Positions 8,520-47,081 of a stretch of DNA of 64,000 nucleotides are shown piece after piece; the first letter of the stretch is position 1; every line of letters begins with the position of its first letter. This DNA comes from a virus. The position numbers and the translations under genes are program-made. The notes beneath the pieces are model-generated. The model saw only the letters and a program-made list of their open reading frames with translations, was not told the origin of the DNA and did not search any database. The stretch is from positions 1 to 64,000 of IMG/VR virus record IMGVR_UViG_3300045988_004573. One strand, written 5' to 3'.

Positions 8520-8591
8520 AGCAGATAGAGAGAATCGAACTCTCACCAAAAGATTGGAAATCTCTTATACTAACCTTTATACGATACCTGC
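8520..8591 (-). tRNA. tRNA-Gly(UCC)
   Basis: acceptor GCAGGTA/TATCTGC; anticodon loop UUUCCAA; T-loop TTCGATT. Confidence 0.85.
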
Positions 8592-8993
8592 TTGTTTATT
8601 CTTATAATGTAAGTCTCTATGGCAATTAGCACATAGGACTCTGCACTTTTTAATCTCCTCTTCAAGCTTTCTTGGGGACTCTATCAATTTAACAACCTCT
8701 TTTTCCTTCTCATCAGGATTAACATGATGAAAATCTAAGCACCAAGGTCTGCTTTCCCCACATATCTCACATTTCAAAGTACTTTTATACTCCTCAAACT
8801 CTGCTGTCTTCTTCTTTTTATATTCAGCAGCTTTTGTTTTGTAGTACTCTTTATGTTCCTGATAATGCTTATCTCTGTATATCTTTCTACAAGACTTGCA
8901 ATCTGAGGCATGACCATCCTTTCTTAGTTTATTTATTGCAAACTCAGAGATTGGTTTTAGCTCTCCACATTTACTGCACTTCTTCATTTCCAT
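8577..8993 (-). CDS. HNH homing endonuclease (free-standing, inside tRNA array)
   Basis: 138 aa; Cys-rich N-terminus; LDFHHVNPDEKE ... CANCHRDLH HNH core; 3' end overlaps tRNA-Gly by 15 nt. Confidence 0.8.
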   Translation of the reverse strand: MEMKKCSKCGELKPISEFAINKLRKDGHASDCKSCRKIYRDKHYQEHKEYYKTKAAEYKKKKTAEFEEYKSTLKCEICGESRPWCLDFHHVNPDEKEKEVVKLIESPRKLEEEIKKCRVLCANCHRDLHYKNKQAGIV

Positions 8994-11369: not shown

Positions 11370-11774
11370 TTATATCTTAATCAATCCCGCATGAATCTCT
11401 CTATGGCAATTGGCGCAAACCAATATACACTTATCTATTTCTGGTTTGAGAGATTCAAATGACTTAGTCCCTCCACTAATAGTAAAGTCTTTCTCTTGTG
11501 GGTTCAAATGATGAAACTCAAGAGCATTCATACATTTGTTATATCCACATATCTGACATCTACCACCCTTGTACTCTATAAGCCTCTGTTTTACAATACT
11601 TCTATACCTTGAAGTATCTCTTACAGGCTTTATTTGTCTATTAGGTCTTTTCTTAAAAACTATAAACTTTTTTAGAGCTTCATAGGATATATGAAGAGTT
11701 TTCGCTACAACTTTTATATTACCTACTTTGTCATATAGCTTCTGAGCTTCTACTTTTCTATCTTCACTTATCAT
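11370..11774 (-). CDS. HNH homing endonuclease with N-terminal HTH (start trimmed to MISEDRK...)
   Basis: CQICGY..., LEFHHLNPQEKD, CANCHREIH; the first 42 codons of track ORF 11370..11900 overlap two tRNA genes, so the ATG at 11774 is preferred. Confidence 0.8.
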   Translation of the reverse strand: MISEDRKVEAQKLYDKVGNIKVVAKTLHISYEALKKFIVFKKRPNRQIKPVRDTSRYRSIVKQRLIEYKGGRCQICGYNKCMNALEFHHLNPQEKDFTISGGTKSFESLKPEIDKCILVCANCHREIHAGLIKI

Positions 11775-11776
11775 AG

Positions 11777-11853
11777 TACTGGCAGAGGGGATTGAACCCA
11801 CATGCAACCTATTACCCTTTCTACTGTGTATAAGACAGAGGGGATATGCCAGT
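11777..11853 (-). tRNA. atypical tRNA-like gene (no recognisable D-arm; anticodon-like loop CUUAUAC = UAU)
   Basis: perfect 7-bp acceptor ACTGGCA/TGCCAGT and T-arm GTGGG-TTCAATC-CCCTC; the interior folds as one long bulged arm capped by CUUAUAC. Confidence 0.4.
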
Positions 11854-11860
11854 ATATTGG

Positions 11861-11935
11861 GGTGTCTGATGGGACTTGAACCCACACTACTTGGAGCCAC
11901 AATCCAAGGCTCTAGACCAATTAAGCTACAGACAC
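11861..11935 (-). tRNA. tRNA-His(GUG)
   Basis: acceptor GTGTCTG/CAGACAC; discriminator C; anticodon loop UUGUGGC. Confidence 0.85.
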
Positions 11936-16956: not shown

Positions 16957-17280
16957 ATGAAGAAGTACATTGTTTATGACACCACTGGTAATCCAGTAGG
17001 TGTTCCTTTCAACACATGGAAGGATGCAGAGACCTATAAGATAGTCTATGGGAGACCTGATTGGACTGTCAAGTTAGCACACATTCATATAGACCGCAAG
17101 TCAACTGAGAGACAGAGAAGAGCTGTCTCATTTGTTGAAGAATGGTGTAATATCTCATTTGAAGGTAATATAAATGACTTCTATGAGGTATCAGACTTCC
17201 TTGCAGACTATCTGGACACTGCTAAAGAGATTGCAGAAGATGCTGCTGCATCATATTGGTCAATGATAAATGGTTACTAA
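16957..17280 (+). CDS. hypothetical protein
   Basis: 107-aa ORF. Confidence 0.5.
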   Translation: MKKYIVYDTTGNPVGVPFNTWKDAETYKIVYGRPDWTVKLAHIHIDRKSTERQRRAVSFVEEWCNISFEGNINDFYEVSDFLADYLDTAKEIAEDAAASYWSMINGY

Positions 17281-17524
17281 GATGAACACAGTGAAGAAGA
17301 TATTGAAGGGTGTGTTGCTATGGGTGACAGCCTTCACAGTCATGCTATTCATATCAGGAGTGGATAGTATAACTGACCAAGGTTACTTAGTGCCTTGGTT
17401 GGTAGTTTGTGCCGTTCTATGCTACTTATGCTACAGGTACATATCTGAGGAGGATTTGAATACTCTCTCAGGTGCCAAGTGGCTTGATAAGAAATTAGGT
17501 AGTAGTGATGATGATTTAAGGTAA
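17270..17524 (+). CDS. membrane protein
   Basis: 84 aa with two predicted TM helices. Confidence 0.5.
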   Translation: MVTKMNTVKKILKGVLLWVTAFTVMLFISGVDSITDQGYLVPWLVVCAVLCYLCYRYISEEDLNTLSGAKWLDKKLGSSDDDLR

Positions 17525-17599
17525 TTTGATTGTACACTCCCAGTCTGTGAAGATAGGGAGTGAAATACCTTCATAGTTCAAGGGATAGAATAACTCTAA

Positions 17600-17767
17600 G
17601 TAAATCATTTATACTATTATATAGATGGAAATTCTTGTAATAACAGAGAAGAGAATCTTCAACTGTTATGCCCTAATTGTCATTCTCTTACAGAGAATTT
17701 TGGTAGTAGGAACAAGAATGCTAATAGTGGTAGAAGTATATACTATGGAAGAGCTAGGGCTGATTAG
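17600..17767 (+). pseudogene. HNH endonuclease remnant (C-terminal core only, no start codon)
   Basis: frame reads VNHLYYYIDGNSCNNREENLQLLCPNCHSLTENFG...; opens right after a stop, has no Met, and ends inside tRNA-Arg. Confidence 0.55.
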
Positions 17768-17831
17768 CTCAACTGCACAGAGCGGGGGTTTCCTAAACCT
17801 CAGGTTGGGAGTTGGAGTCTCCCATCAGCCA
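17758..17831 (+). tRNA. tRNA-Arg(CCU) nested inside the interrupted tRNA
   Basis: acceptor GGCTGAT/ATCAGCC; D-stem GCTC/GAGC; anticodon loop UUCCUAA; T-arm GGGAG-TTGGAGT-CTCCC; D-loop lacks GG and the T-loop has G56 (atypical elbow). Confidence 0.65.
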
Positions 17832-18018
17832 CATTTTGCTTAGAGTAGATACTGGTTCGAGTCCAGTTGGAGGTACAATGTCTATTTAACCACTATTTCC
17901 TGACTCTGCTGGGCAAAATGACTGAAAATGTGGTGCTAATGGGTAAGCCATAGTTTCTTGTTTTAGCTTGTACTTTGTTCTTAGAAAAGAAGCAAAGCAA
18001 TTGGGGAATCACATTTGG

Positions 18019-18102
18019 GAATGTATAGCTTAATGGTAAAGCAGCGTGGTACCACTTCAAAACAATGAGAGCAAGATGTAGGTTCAACTCCTACTGCATT
18101 CC
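18019..18102 (+). ncRNA. aberrant 84-nt tRNA-like RNA
   Basis: acceptor GAATGTA/TGCATTC (extendable to 8-9 bp); D-arm GCTT-AATGGTA-AAGC; T-arm GTAGG-TTCAACT-CCTAC; the 34-nt central part does not form a standard anticodon arm and carries GCAG...ACTTCAA as in the insertion family. Confidence 0.5.
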
Positions 18103-18183
18103 TATCTCAATAGTAGTTAAAATGCACAGCCAGCATTGTATCTATGTATCTAACTGGTCATAGTATATGCTGGCACTACTCAT

Positions 18184-18586
18184 GGGGCTGTTTGGTTTTG
18201 ACTGGTGGCTACTGGGTATGAGGACATGCAGAGACTGATGGAGAGACATCAAAACTTTAGGTGGCAACAGAATTTCTGCACCTGTAGCTCTTGCTGCTTA
18301 AGCAATCTACTGAGTTGGTCACTGACTTGGAAACAGAATAGTGACAAAACAAATAAGGTCAAGAAGGAAGTATAATAAGGCTATACCTACTTTCAGTGCT
18401 TAATGGCTGTGATGCACACAGAGGGTGTGACCTTTCAGATTTCTTGCATAGATGAATGCAAGTGGTGGATGATGTTGACAATCCAGTCAACCCCAGCAGA
18501 GAACCAACTGCATAATAAAGTGGTAAGCATGTGTAATCCTTATATTGAGGGCTATTAGGACAGGGGTTCGACTCCCCTCAGCTCCA
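18184..18586 (+). ncRNA. ssrA: tmRNA
   Basis: 5' GGGGCTGTTTGGTTTTGAC; 3' GGACAGGGGTTCGACTCCCCTCAGCTCCA; acceptor with G3-U70; internal tag frame ...GGC AAC AGA ATT TCT GCA CCT GTA GCT CTT GCT GCT TAA (..NRISAPVALAA stop, 18263-18301). Confidence 0.85.
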
Positions 18587-18617
18587 CAATTAACATCAAC
18601 AATTAAATTACATTAGA

Positions 18618-19427: not shown

Positions 19428-20840
19428 ATGTGTTCTAAATTAAATCCAAGATTAAAGCCTGCACCTAAGTTTGAGGGCACTCAACTGGCAGGTGGTTATG
19501 GTGCTTTGGCTGCTAGACAATCCAATGTAGCATTGCTTAGAAGAGCAGTGCTGGCTAATCTCCTTTGGGAAGATGTAGCATACATGGATGGAATTTCAGT
19601 AGCCAGTGAGATTAAGAGGTTAATACCTCTGTGCCCTGCTGAGGATGTATATAACATAGCTCTTGAAGCTAGGTTAATGCAGAAGCTGAGACATACTCCA
19701 TTGTTCATAGCAGTGGAAATGTGCAAGTACCCTGAACATAAGTTATTTGTTAAGGACTTGTTACCTAAGATAATCACAAGAGCTGATATGCTCACTGACT
19801 TCTTGGCTATATATTGGAAGGACAAGAAATGCCCTATCTGTAATCAAGCTAAGAAAGGTCTGGCTTTAGCCTTCCACAACTTCAATGAGTATAAGTTGGC
19901 TAAGTATGACAGAGATGCTGCTATCAAGCTCAGAGATGTGATGTTCTTAGTACATACTAAGCCTAGAAACCAATATGAGCAGGAGTTGTTCAATAAGGTA
20001 GCTGAGAGAACTCTTACACCTCCTGAGACATGGGAAGTCATGTTATCTAGAGGTGAGGATAAGAAAGCTACTTGGACTAAGCTCATTACAGAAGGTAAGA
20101 TAGGAGGATTAGCTATGTTGAGGAATATAGCTAATATGCAGAAAGCTAATGTGGATAGAAAGACTATTCAAGATGGTCTTAAAACACTAAGAAGCTCAAT
20201 GCTATTACCTCTTGACTTCTGGAAGGCTGCTAGGATGAACTCAGTATTTGAGAGAGACATTGAGGATGCTATGATTGAGGCATATAAGAACTTACCTAAA
20301 CTTCCTGGTAAGACACTGTTTATAGTGGATGTATCAGGTTCTATGGGTTCTTTAACCTCTGGTAGTTCTCAGTTCAATAGAATGGACCAAGCCTGTGCTA
20401 TGGCTATCTTGGCAGCTAATCAGTGCGAGGACTATGAGCTTGTAGCTACAGCAGGTAATGATGGTTCTAGAAAGAATGCCTCAGAGTGGATTGAATATCC
20501 TAAGAGAGGTTTTGCTCTTGCTCCACAGATAATGGAGACCAGACATAGGATTGGTGGCGGAGGTATATTCACCAGACAATGCCTAGAGTGGTGTAAGGAT
20601 AAGTTCAAAGACAAGAAGTTTGATAGAATTATCATATTCTCAGACTCTCAAGACTGTGACTATCCTGAGAAGAGAGTGCCTAAACCTTTTGGTACTTACA
20701 ACTATATTTGTGATGTGTCAGCACACACAAAAGGTGTAAACTACAGAGGTACATGGACTGCTGAGATAAGTGGTTTCTCGGAGCATTTCATTACATTCAT
20801 TGCAGCAATGGAAGGTGTTCAGAATACCTTTGAAGAATAA
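19428..20840 (+). CDS. rsr: Ro60 ortholog (TROVE domain + vWA/MIDAS)
   Basis: 470 aa; TROVE-like LLWEDVAYMDG, EARLMQKLRHTPLFIAVEM, KYDRDAAIKLRDVMFLVHTKP, LAMLRNIANM; vWA MIDAS FIVDVSGSMGS, GGGG-I-F-T, IIIFSDSQD. These align by eye with recalled human Ro60 motifs ([45 protein letters not shown]). Confidence 0.85.
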   Translation: MCSKLNPRLKPAPKFEGTQLAGGYGALAARQSNVALLRRAVLANLLWEDVAYMDGISVASEIKRLIPLCPAEDVYNIALEARLMQKLRHTPLFIAVEMCKYPEHKLFVKDLLPKIITRADMLTDFLAIYWKDKKCPICNQAKKGLALAFHNFNEYKLAKYDRDAAIKLRDVMFLVHTKPRNQYEQELFNKVAERTLTPPETWEVMLSRGEDKKATWTKLITEGKIGGLAMLRNIANMQKANVDRKTIQDGLKTLRSSMLLPLDFWKAARMNSVFERDIEDAMIEAYKNLPKLPGKTLFIVDVSGSMGSLTSGSSQFNRMDQACAMAILAANQCEDYELVATAGNDGSRKNASEWIEYPKRGFALAPQIMETRHRIGGGGIFTRQCLEWCKDKFKDKKFDRIIIFSDSQDCDYPEKRVPKPFGTYNYICDVSAHTKGVNYRGTWTAEISGFSEHFITFIAAMEGVQNTFEE

Positions 20841-20843
20841 AAC

Positions 20844-20987
20844 AAAGAGTACTGTGTAGTGTTTTGTCAGACTTACTTCATTAACTAAGTGGTATAGTGC
20901 AAAACTTTTAATTTTGATGTCACAGGTTCGAGTCCTGTATGAGATTGGGGAAACCCAAGTCTGACATCTGTTCTCCAGTACTCTTTT
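20844..20987 (+). ncRNA. Y-RNA-like element: tRNA-like cloverleaf enclosed by two long terminal helices
   Basis: starts 4 nt after the rsr stop; 11-bp perfect stem 20844-20854/20976-20986 then TTTT; 8-bp stem 20865-20872/20959-20966; inside: D-arm ACTA-AGTGGTA-TAGT, arm CAAAA-CUUUUAA-TTTTG, T-arm ACAGG-TTCGAGT-CCTGT, plus a GAAA-capped hairpin. Confidence 0.6.
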
Positions 20988-20994
20988 CAATATG

Positions 20995-21125
20995 GAGGAG
21001 TTAGCTCAGTTGGTTAGAGCACTTAATGTTACTCTGTCAAATGTTCCATAGTAATATTGGTGGCAGATAGAGTTACTTCGGAATTGCTAATTCAGTGGTC
21101 ATAGGTTCAAATCCTATACTCCTCC
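20995..21125 (+). tRNA. tRNA gene with ~57-nt insertion after position 26 (anticodon-like loop UUGCUAA)
   Basis: acceptor GAGGAGT/ACTCCTC; canonical D-arm GCTC-AGTTGGTTA-GAGC; T-arm ATAGG-TTCAAAT-CCTAT; insertion ends in AGAGTTACTTC. Confidence 0.6.
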
Positions 21126-44736: not shown

Positions 44737-46857
44737 TGGATGAGTGGTTTGAAGAAGGAAAGCATGAAGCTATCAAGTACTATGGTGAGCAGATATACTA
44801 TGTGTCTGGAGTTGCAAACTTATTTAGTGATGCAGAGATAGGATGTCCTTATAAGAATATATCAGTAAGGGAATCACTGGAGCTTCTCAGTACACTAAAG
44901 GTTGTAGGATTGGATAGTGAGACTAGAGGTACAGAGATATGGCAAGGTCAGCTGCTGTTACTTCAATTAGGTAACAAGCACTTTCAAGTAGTCATTGACT
45001 GTACCACTGTAGATGTCAAGCTATACAAGGAGTTCCTTGAGAGTGATAGGCTTTTCATAATTCATAATGCCAAGTTTGACCTAAGATGGTTATATAAGGA
45101 GGGTATTGTAATCAGAAATGTATTTGATACTTTCCTTGCAGAGAAGATACTGTTCCTGGGATTTCCACCAGGAATAGTGTCACTCAGCTTGCAGGCTTGT
45201 TGTGACAGGTATCTTAATGTCTACCTTGACAAGACAGTCAGAGGTAAGATTAACTATGGTGTCACTGATGAGGTAATAATCTATTCAGCCAATGATGTTG
45301 TGTTCCTTGAAGATGTCATGGAAGCACAGTTAAAGCAGATAGAGGCTAGAGGTCAGAGAGTCGCCTTAGAGATAGAGAACAGGTTTGTGAGAGTATTGGC
45401 TTATATTGAGTTCTGTGGTATAAGGCTTGACATTGAAAGGTGGAAAGCCAAGATGGTTAAGGATGCTGAAAGGCTGAGAGTAGCAGAGCAGAAACTCAAT
45501 GATTGGGTTGTAGAGTATGTGATGTCCAAAGGAGACACAGATGCTATAGCCTATGATGTTCAGACTAAGAGAGGAAAGGTAAAGAGAGCTAAGGGTACTA
45601 TAGGTAAGTATGTAGCTATAGACCCACAGCAGAACCTCTTTGAGGAGAACAAGCCAAGATGTATCATCAACTGGAACAGTAACAAGCAGGTTATACCATT
45701 GTTTGAGGAGTTAGGGTTCAATGTATGGGCTAAAGACAAGAAGACTGGAAAGATGAAGAAGTCAGTAGACTCAAAGCTGCTTAAACAGCAGTTGGATAAG
45801 AGTCCTCTGGCTAAGTTATATCTTGATTACTCTGGTGAGTTCAAGGTAGTTACTTCATTTGGTCAGAACTTCTTGGATGCAGTCAATCCTGTTACAGGGA
45901 GAATACACCCTACATTCAATCAGATGATGGACACTGGCAGGTTGAGTTGTGGTAAAGGAGGAAAGAAAGGTGGAGGTAAGACTAAGGATGATGACTTTGC
46001 TGAGGAAGAGCAGACTGAGCAGGATGCTGATGTTATCATAGCAGTAGATAAGAGTGTGAATGTTCAGCAGTTGCCATCTGATGCAGAGACTAGAGCTTGC
46101 TTCATACCTGATAAAGACCACATGCTAGTTGATTGTGATTATGGAGACCAAGAAGGTCATGTCTTTACTGAGTTAAGTCAGGATAAGGCATGGATTGATT
46201 TCTATAATGACCCCAATGAGAGAGATGGTCACTCCTTTGTAGCCAAGATGATATTCTCTGATGAGCTAAAGGATATACCAGAGAAGGAAGTAAAGAAGAA
46301 GAGGAAAGACTTGAGGGATGCTGCAAAGCCAGCAAGGTTTACCTTTAATTATAATGGGACAGCCAATGCCTTAGCAGCTAACACAGGTAAGTCTCTTGAG
46401 TTCTGTGAGTTGTGCTTTAAGAAGTACTTCTCAGCATTCAAAGGTATAGCCAGCTACTTTAGAGTGAGTAAGGCTAATATGTGGAAAAGAGGTTATATCC
46501 TAATCTCAAAGTACACTGGACTGAGGGCTTACATCTATGACTATCCTATACTGAAAGGCATAGAGAGAAGAATCAAGAGAATGGGTCAGGAGTTCTGGGA
46601 TTCCTATAGGAAAGCCAGAGACTCTGGTCAAGTCATTGATGATGTCCCTGCTGTGGTTCTTCAACAGATGGCAAGGAAGTTTGCCAATGGAGAACCTATG
46701 GAGGCTATTGCTATAAGGTATGAGTATAAGGTCAAGAAGGGTAAGAAGATTGAGACAAAGTATATTGATATTAACAGGGAAACTGTATTGATTAAACTCT
46801 GGAAGCATCTGGCAAAGAGAAGGTCATCATCTGAGAACCAGTCCTGTAACTATCCCT
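44736..46857 (+). CDS. family A DNA polymerase, exon 1
   Basis: Exo I GLDSET, Exo II IHNAKFDLRWL, Exo III YSANDV; pol motif A VDCDYGDQE; motif B RDAAKPARFTFNYNG; the reading frame leaves the PolA consensus after ..NQSCNYP. Confidence 0.85.
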
Positions 46858-47081
46858 TAATTGTGGGGGCATATAGTGGTGACATTATATGAAAACTCAG
46901 TGAATTGCTGGAAGGCTAAGGAGAAATCTATGCTAATCAGCAGCCAAGACTTGTAGAAATGCAAGTAAGGTTCAGAGACTAATCAAAGTAAGCTAAGGAG
47001 AAATCTATGCTGAAATGGGCAAGAGTGCTGAGTATCTCTTAATTATTTATTTACCCTATTGGATAATTAAGAAATAATTTG

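Follow-up and report, generated by a model that had tools for sequence, protein, structure and literature searches.

Homing endonuclease genes are thought to spare their hosts in one of two ways, either by residing in self-splicing introns or inteins or by occupying sites between genes. Group I introns sit in the anticodon loops of bacterial tRNA genes, as in tRNA-Leu(UAA) and the Agrobacterium tRNA-Arg(CCU), and the intervening sequences of bacterial 23S rRNA are excised by ribonuclease III (RNase III) without religation. In the Aeh1 nrdA gene, insertion of the homing endonuclease gene mobE splits the gene into pieces that still work ("genes in pieces"), and in Allomyces atp6 an organellar endonuclease element brings along a replacement gene segment. 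In synthetic "home-and-rescue" and "cleave-and-rescue" drives, the nuclease disrupts a needed gene and a cleavage-resistant rescue copy is carried with it. The free-standing homing endonuclease SegB of phage T4 is encoded within the phage tRNA gene cluster (PMC2330249, PMC13096335). Here, we analyze a 64,000-nucleotide (nt) stretch of viral DNA (positions 1 to 64,000 of the IMG/VR record IMGVR_UViG_3300045988_004573; hereafter, the window), in which a mobile cassette that combined an HNH nuclease gene with a cargo tRNA-Arg(CCU), and that has since decayed, probably invaded the tRNA-Arg(CCU) gene resident in a crAss-like phage of Bacteroides.

The window derives from a gut crAss-like phage and shows 67-70% nucleotide identity to cr106_1, PhiCrAssBcn and Kehishuvirus, all of which infect Bacteroides. 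The window contains 29 tRNA genes, a transfer-messenger RNA (tmRNA) and, elsewhere, one group I intron. On the plus strand, the 5' half of the resident, or outer, tRNA (nt 1-31; 17567-17597) comprises the acceptor strand, U8A9, the D arm, A26 and the anticodon-stem strand ACTCT (ACCTTCA TA GTTC AAGGGATA GAAT A ACTCT), and its 3' half (nt 39-73; 17842-17875, plus strand) comprises AGAGT, a 4-nt variable loop, the T arm, the 3' acceptor strand and the discriminator A (AGAGT AGAT ACTGG TTCGAGT CCAGT TGGAGGT A). The two halves form 21 of 21 pairs: 7/7 in the acceptor stem (one of them G.U), 4/4 in the D stem, 5/5 in the anticodon stem and 5/5 in the T stem. Thus, all four stems are present, and the 7-nt loop is swapped for a 244-nt insert (17598-17841) located at the 5' edge of the anticodon loop, after nt 31. 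A preliminary description of this DNA, made from its letters without database searches, had given the coordinates of the outer halves, their sequence features and the 7/7 and 5/5 pairing exactly as we read them, along with an insert of this length holding a start-less HNH core and a complete tRNA-Arg(CCU) with an unusual elbow. The outer tRNA escaped ARAGORN even when introns of up to 400 nt were allowed and the score threshold was lowered; the only intron-containing calls, all doubtful, were elsewhere.

To sample the locus without bias, we used the conserved gene for an 84-amino-acid (aa) membrane protein just upstream (17270-17524), which yielded 23 syntenic IMG/VR loci. The tRNA-Arg(CCU) gene is uninterrupted in 18 of these, two have a UCU variant, one has nothing at this position and two are nested. 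The nested state is rare and derived, because the gene is uninterrupted in 18 of the 23 loci. The comparison with relatives lacking the insertion, which the preliminary description had proposed, showed that the flanking halves form one gene in L001, a syntenic locus with 87-96% identity to the window (loop CCCCTAA), and in L008, with the canonical loop CTCCTAA. The outer 5' half of the window shows 90% identity to the corresponding part of the L001 gene, and the 3' half is identical to it across 40 nt (100%). An exact search of IMG/VR with the window 5' half returned no match, and a degenerate pattern was required. Filled sites were found in the window and in L004, L002, L045, L049 and L050. 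The insert is thus present or absent at one site among related genomes and occurs in unrelated backgrounds, as expected of a mobile element, and the outer and inner tRNAs share one anticodon (CCU). Two resident genes show variant loops: the one in L001 (2966-3038, minus strand) has C33 instead of the near-universal U33, which we speculate could be an endonuclease-resistance mutation, and the one in L029 (3307-3379) has the loop CTTCTAA, giving the anticodon UCU.

When the D arm of the inner tRNA was used to scan metagenomes, the matches included the contig of the window itself (L044), a number of nested variants and, in L040 and L038, two elements that are intact. The intact insert measures 756-758 nt between the resident 5' and 3' halves and consists, in this order, of a leader of about 75 nt, a 201-aa HNH open reading frame (ORF), the cargo tRNA-Arg(CCU) and a tail of 11-13 nt. 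The leader begins with AAGTAAATCATTTATACTATTGCATATTTGAACC and contains a hairpin that ends at the start codon. In the ORF product, an N-terminal region resembling a helix-turn-helix is accompanied by a segment rich in Cys and by a complete HNH motif (CQIC...HHIDGD...NLQLLCPNCH), and the scores in L040/L038 exceed the curated Pfam cutoffs for both HNH (25.3 bits) and HNH_3 (25.5 bits). Its stop codon TAG coincides with nt 8-10 of the cargo tRNA, in the intact copies as well as in the window. The overlap between the ORF and the cargo tRNA is 6-10 nt long, and this linkage is kept across 57-91% protein identity. Nucleotide similarity of L040 and L038 to the window is limited to the element, and L038 has another allele of the resident tRNA (acceptor GTTTTCG/TGGAAAC, D stem GCTC/GAGC), the two halves of which match each other perfectly. 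Furthermore, the 3' half in L050 joins a window-type tail to an L040-type T arm, a mosaic that hints at co-conversion.

We found 1611 relatives of the HNH protein at E<=1e-5 and inspected the genomic contexts of six, with 57-72% protein identity. Five of these (P0009, P0026, P0034, P0013 and P0039) end inside a tRNA-Arg(CCU) of the cargo family, which lies between resident halves pairing at 21/21 positions; the sixth, P0010 (65% identity), has its end in a cargo tRNA-Arg(CCU) too, with only the resident 5' half detectable alongside. Two IMG/VR relatives (L063 and L064; 56-58% identity in tblastn) likewise end inside a tRNA-Arg(CCU) between perfectly matching resident halves (21/21). A broader IMG/VR scan with a protein alignment gave 173 relatives; of the 80 kept, 68 have tRNA genes no more than 700 nt away, 18 overlap a tRNA-Arg(CCU), and a few abut Arg-ACG, Lys-CTT, Gly or Val genes. 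This distribution suggests that the cassette is mobile between phages. Other arrangements exist in the family. No cargo tRNA abuts the ORFs of P0051 (59%) and P0118 (56%), two more distant members that are free-standing beside tRNA genes, and no tRNA was found within the 900-nt flanks of P0018 (66%). P0031 (59%) is located in a tRNA cluster, but its ORF is not abutted by a tRNA-Arg(CCU) cargo, and resident halves could not be detected around it; the identity of its nearest tRNA is uncertain, the printed sequence disagreeing with the ARAGORN anticodon. The relatives at L096, L102, L120/L122, L127 and L132 overlap, or end no more than about 2 nt from, tRNAs other than Arg(CCU) (Arg-ACG, Lys-CTT, Gly-TCC, Gly-GCC and Val-TAC), around which a simple search gave no convincing resident halves. 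Downstream of P0118, at about 2230-2378 of L061, another tRNA appears to be interrupted, with about 70 extra nt between a 5' part (GGTGATG-TA-GCTC-AGTTGGTA-GAGC) and a 3' part (GGTTCGAGTCCACA-CATCACC) whose acceptor strands match perfectly.

Compared with the intact element of L040, the window copy lacks 514 nt, so that the leader, at 17618, is joined to approximately codon 150. What remains on the plus strand is a remnant of the 5' leader (17598-17618; AAGTAAATCATTTATACTATT), which aligns with the leaders of L040, L038, L049 and L004, and a 3' remnant of the HNH gene of about 50 codons (17619-17767), which has no start codon and ends with the stop codon TAG at 17765-17767; the window leader TAAATCATTTATACT is also present in L142. 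The HNH-like frame as a whole is open from about 17606 to this TAG, and its product includes YYIDGNSCNNREENLQLLCPNCHSLTENF. Its match to the Pfam HNH profile is weak and covers the C-terminal half (E=0.0024; 18.4 bits, below the curated cutoff of 21.4). The HNH region shares 16 of 28 residues with the HNH core of the endonuclease of Agrobacterium phage Atu_ph07, and the remnant is 86% identical to the C-terminus of the L002 copy (tblastn). With about 150 N-terminal codons, the start codon and the first catalytic His gone (YYID vs HHID in the intact copies), the window copy does not have a complete HNH motif. The element closes with the 3' tail (17832-17841, plus strand; CATTTTGCTT), of which the last 7 nt, TTTGCTT (17835-17841), can pair with 17598-17604.

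The HNH gene has been lost in other ways in other lineages, namely by an internal deletion in L045, L049 and L050, by a larger deletion in L004, and in L002 by a deletion that also took the outer 5' half and left the cargo tRNA. The cargo tRNA is intact in every decayed lineage (the window, L045/L049/L050, L004 and L002). Such independent deletions sparing the cargo fit the pattern of invasion, fixation and decay expected of a homing endonuclease gene, with selection holding the cargo. The outer halves of decayed copies have gathered stem mismatches (C6.A67 and C50.A64 in L004, C3.A70 in L045 and C6.A67 in L050), which are confined to such copies and number zero in 11 uninterrupted genes, consistent with relaxed constraint. 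The window copy is most likely a dead relic with a presumably working cargo tRNA. A stretch of 30 aa upstream of the L002 copy (NNPIKEINY...) was considered as a further part of the HNH gene; tblastn traced it to native sequence downstream of the 84-aa gene in L012-L015.

The cargo tRNA-Arg(CCU) itself (17758-17831, or 17832; plus strand) is called by both ARAGORN and Rfam, with an Rfam score of 56.8 bits against a gathering score of 29. In an alignment of 13 family members over 74 nt, which leaves out the cargo types of L080 and L081, all 22 pairs are formed in 100% of the cells, and 16 of the 22 show compensatory changes, so that the family is clearly constrained; the cargo tRNA is presumably aminoacylated and used. 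Thus, the inner tRNA conforms to the cloverleaf with compensatory changes and departs from the canonical G18-G19/C56 elbow. With the D-loop AACTGCACA and the T-loop TTGGAGT, the window cargo has C19:G56 rather than G19:C56, and across the 13 aligned members this pair is CG in eight, UA in four, AU in one and G:C in none, with G18 mostly kept; the canonical G:C elbow was seen only in the L080 and L081 types. Because the 19:56 pair is always Watson-Crick, the cargo elbow is probably intact, if atypical. The family also occurs free-standing in other phages. On a GC-rich metagenome contig (L043, about 1488-1562), we found a tRNA with the same D arm and a swapped elbow (AACTGCACA / TTGGAAG), whose loop CTACTAA (anticodon ACU) is the 7-mer kept at the 3' junction of several nested elements.

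The phage needs a tRNA-Arg(CCU), because its Arg residues are encoded almost only by AGA and AGG. Across the 39 window ORFs of at least 150 aa, AGA occurs 411 times, AGG 247 times and all four CGN codons together 14 times (29.8, 17.9 and about 1 per 1000 codons, respectively), AGG accounting for 37% of the Arg codons. The inner gene is the sole tRNA-Arg(CCU) that ARAGORN finds within the 64-kb window.

These observations make it probable that a cassette of HNH nuclease and cargo tRNA invaded the resident gene. The events could have been as follows. During a mixed infection, the nuclease would cut the uninterrupted resident tRNA-Arg gene of a cassette-free phage, and repair would copy the cassette from the bearing genome, the tRNA halves and their flanks serving as homology arms. 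The insertion would destroy the resident tRNA, the cargo tRNA would take over decoding of AGG and render the insertion harmless, and the phage would from then on depend on the cargo. After fixation, the nuclease gene would be free to decay, as the 514-nt deletion in the window, with its loss of the start, about 150 codons and the first catalytic His, suggests. The homing mechanism, the nuclease activity and its target are proposed here on the model of T4 SegB and other free-standing homing endonucleases of phages.

At the base of the insert, AAGTAAA (17598-17604) pairs with TTTGCTT (17835-17841), which lengthens the outer anticodon stem to a helix of 12 base pairs (bp) closing the insert; this helix is present in the minimum free energy fold of 17567-17875 (z=-3.7). 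Across 11 elements, the 7-bp junction part is 87% paired, and six of its seven pairs are changed on both sides, with four junction classes (AAGTAAA/TTTGCTT, TTATAAG/CTTATAA, TTAAAAG/CTTTTAG and TTAGTA/TACTAA). In L040 and L038, the junction pairs only in a shifted register with a bulge. At the DNA level, the junctions are 12-bp terminal inverted repeats. The helix may act in RNA processing or insulation, or may be a DNA-level footprint, as from fold-back repair at a palindrome. The sequence TTATAA at both junctions of L054 was considered as a target-site duplication and discarded; it is palindromic and part of the junction helix.

Several points weigh against invasion by a homing cassette. A simple scar of insertion does not predict a covarying 7-bp terminal helix, which may mean that the outer context has a role at the RNA level, for example in processing, or that the insertion was non-classical. 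The outer halves in the window carry no stem-breaking mutation, and their status as a relic depends only on the missing loop. Mobility is deduced from distribution, and the nuclease activity, the cleavage site and homing itself are putative. Finally, the window covers 64 kb of a genome of about 100 kb, and another tRNA-Arg(CCU) may be present elsewhere in it.

The junctions also provide the main argument for the best of the alternatives, in which the HNH gene is a passenger and the cassette moves without HNH-driven homing, by a hairpin or fold-back event or by another enzyme acting on the 12-bp repeats. The left and right junctions (stem plus 7 nt) are reverse complements of each other in four sequence classes, and fold-back priming at a break inside a palindrome could make such repeats. 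However, the HNH ORF and the cargo tRNA have stayed linked, through their 6-10 nt overlap, over 57-91% protein identity, the cassette contains no transposase or integrase, and members of the HNH family are nearly confined to the tRNA clusters of phages, like known homing endonucleases of tRNA regions (PMC2330249). We therefore regard this alternative as unlikely.

Somewhat further down the scale of probability is a functional nested or split tRNA, in which RNase P and RNase Z would free the inner tRNA and the outer halves would stay paired as a two-piece molecule serving in decoding, as a tRNA-like scaffold or as a processing signal. The perfect outer stems (21/21) in the window and in every element with an intact HNH gene would suit such a molecule, and the covarying 12-bp helix would hold the halves together or could be an RNase III-type processing site. 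However, with no anticodon loop, decoding is impossible; the outer halves of decayed copies gather mismatches; L002 has kept the cargo tRNA without the 5' half; and a non-exhaustive search of the neighborhood found no RNA ligase or splicing endonuclease. The nesting offered in the preliminary description is genuine, whereas the released halves are unlikely to form a working tRNA, in view of the loss of the anticodon loop and the mismatched decayed copies. We consider this reading very improbable.

The least probable reading, with hardly any chance of being correct in our view, is that the insert is an intron, group I or otherwise self- or enzyme-spliced, whose removal restores the outer tRNA so that both tRNAs are made. 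The anticodon loop is where bacterial tRNA group I introns sit, the window has a real group I intron elsewhere, and the paired ends of the insert extend the anticodon stem like the intron ends of archaeal and eukaryotic pre-tRNAs. However, the Infernal-type search proposed in the preliminary description came back empty: the group I model RF00028, which finds the intron at 46848-47081 of the same window at 65.3 bits (our positive control), has no match at E<=10 over 17450-18000, insert included, and, with the limit set at E<=1, none in L049 or in the intact elements L038 and L040. Rfam at permissive E-values returned only the inner tRNA and noise on the insert (snoRNA, CRISPR-DR and Plastid-ycf2). 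Subtracting the ORF and the cargo tRNA leaves some 75 + 12 nt of RNA, in which a group I core would not fit. If 17597 is joined to 17842, the loop is missing altogether, contrary to what exon ligation of a group I intron requires, and no choice of splice points at the insert ends (AAGTAAA..., ...TTTGCTT) gives a 7-nt loop with CCU. The 3' junction of the intact elements keeps TTACTAA or CTACTAA, that is, a sequence like the native CTCCTAA with C34 changed to A, so that the loop at this junction reads ACU. Bulge-helix-bulge geometry is lacking as well. The T-loop motif GGAGT of the inner tRNA, which could pair with ACTCT, was examined as an intron guide and set aside, the T-loops of free-standing members being TTGGATT, TTGGAAT and TTAGAGT. 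The preliminary suggestion of a decayed group I intron or homing endonuclease insertion is thus supported for the endonuclease, given the intact 201-aa HNH copies and the presence/absence pattern, and not supported for the group I intron. In the absence of a detectable group I ribozyme and of any way to regenerate an anticodon loop, we regard the outer tRNA as most likely a dead, non-functional relic for which the inner tRNA substitutes.

The invading cassette lends itself to a more far-reaching interpretation, which we put forward tentatively and to which we would give slightly less than even chances. Such cassettes may be natural "home-and-rescue" drives, in which the HNH nuclease destroys the resident tRNA-Arg of competitors and installs a cleavage-immune tRNA-Arg(CCU), making the recipient dependent, with the helix and the elbow as adaptations. 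If so, the 12-bp helix could be an RNA processing or insulation signal or the footprint of the insertion mechanism, and the swapped 19:56 pair could give immunity to nucleases that recognize canonical tRNA genes or tRNAs; that the elbow swap confers immunity to such a nuclease is a guess. Furthermore, with the ORF stop codon inside the tRNA, the nuclease mRNA would be left non-stop once RNase P cleaves, and production of the nuclease could thereby be tied to maturation of the tRNA; a tmRNA is encoded about 350 nt downstream of the nested tRNA.

That tmRNA occupies 18184-18589 (Rfam RF00023, 90.3 bits) and resembles the tmRNA annotated in cr106_1. Between it and the nested tRNA is an 86-nt tRNA (18018-18103; Rfam 47.4 bits), which ARAGORN calls Trp(CCA), or Leu(CAA) with a 6-nt intron if introns are allowed; an 86-nt "Trp(CCA)" gene is found at the matching relative position in L011, L017 and L018. 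A hairpin at 17536-17561 (ACTCCC-AGTCTGTGAAGATA-GGGAGT), which occurs once in the window, ends 5 nt before the outer tRNA. Its loop GTCTGTGAAGATA (variant GCTTGTGAAAGTA) also precedes tRNA genes in L003/L005, L034 and L036 and twice in L040, with stems around the GTCTGTGAAGATA-type loop that differ between loci yet stay complementary, and the hairpin may serve phage tRNA genes as a promoter, a terminator or a signal for processing. Two more ORFs with HNH motifs (8577-8993 and 11370-11900, both on the minus strand; ..CEICGE..FHHVNP..CANCH and ..CQICGY..FHHLNP..CANCH; weak tblastn match) are located between tRNA genes in a 25-gene minus-strand array. Together with the nested remnant, the tRNA arrays of the window thus hold at least three endonuclease insertions. 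Further downstream, an ORF of 470 aa (19428-20840) encodes a TROVE domain (E=6e-11) with a weak match to the Ro60 vWA domain. About 155 nt beyond it is a 131-nt tRNA-like RNA (20995-21125; Rfam tRNA, 47.5 bits) with 70 nt in place of the anticodon arm, and a sub-threshold match to YrlA (Y RNA-like; 21.4 bits, E=0.055) spans 20896-21053. The TROVE ORF and the tRNA-like RNA may be a phage Ro60/Y-RNA pair.

The main interest of this locus is the element family that it reveals, beyond the copy in the window. A cassette of this kind would represent a third route by which an endonuclease gene spares its host, here for an RNA gene: the target is broken and a complete replacement is carried. It would explain the exchange of tRNA genes between unrelated gut phages, the presence of a nuclease relic inside a tRNA gene and the survival of the cargo through every deletion, which is consistent with dependence. 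It points to a large HNH family, with 1611 relatives of which nearly all those examined are in phage tRNA clusters, and to a family of tRNAs with free swapping at the elbow pair G19:C56, which is normally invariant. Both families are relevant to the use of phage tRNAs as counter-defense against host immunity that cleaves tRNAs (PMC13096335). A full-text literature search brought up no account of an endonuclease element that carries a tRNA and is nested in the gene of an isoacceptor tRNA.

To conclude, the cassette can be compared with several known systems, of which free-standing homing endonucleases in phage tRNA clusters come nearest. Like SegB-type systems, it places a selfish, presumably site-specific nuclease gene in a phage tRNA cluster, is polymorphic for presence and absence between related phages and has neighboring tRNA genes co-inherited with the nuclease gene. 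However, SegB is a GIY-YIG enzyme encoded between tRNA genes, whereas the cassette encodes an HNH protein, sits inside the anticodon loop and destroys the tRNA gene, and its nuclease gene is fused, through an overlapping stop codon, to a replacement tRNA with the same anticodon. It shares with tRNA group I introns the anticodon-loop position and the possibility of an endonuclease ORF, and differs from them in having no detectable ribozyme, in exons that are unable to rejoin with CCU and in rescue by a second gene. As in the 23S rRNA intervening sequences, the insert replaces the tip of a hairpin and its base is an extended helix, of 12 bp in the cassette; unlike fragmented 23S rRNA, a tRNA without an anticodon loop cannot function, and RNase III cleavage of the cassette is only conjectural. 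With mobE/nrdA and the atp6 element, the cassette has in common a homing endonuclease gene inside an essential or useful gene and a cost neutralized without splicing, but it replaces the whole product with a complete, divergent cargo gene, and its target is a tRNA rather than a protein gene. The logic of disruption and rescue, with carriers that are viable and dependent on the element, is that of the synthetic rescue drives; the cassette differs from these in being natural, phage-borne and based on a protein-guided HNH nuclease, and its behavior as a drive is hypothetical.

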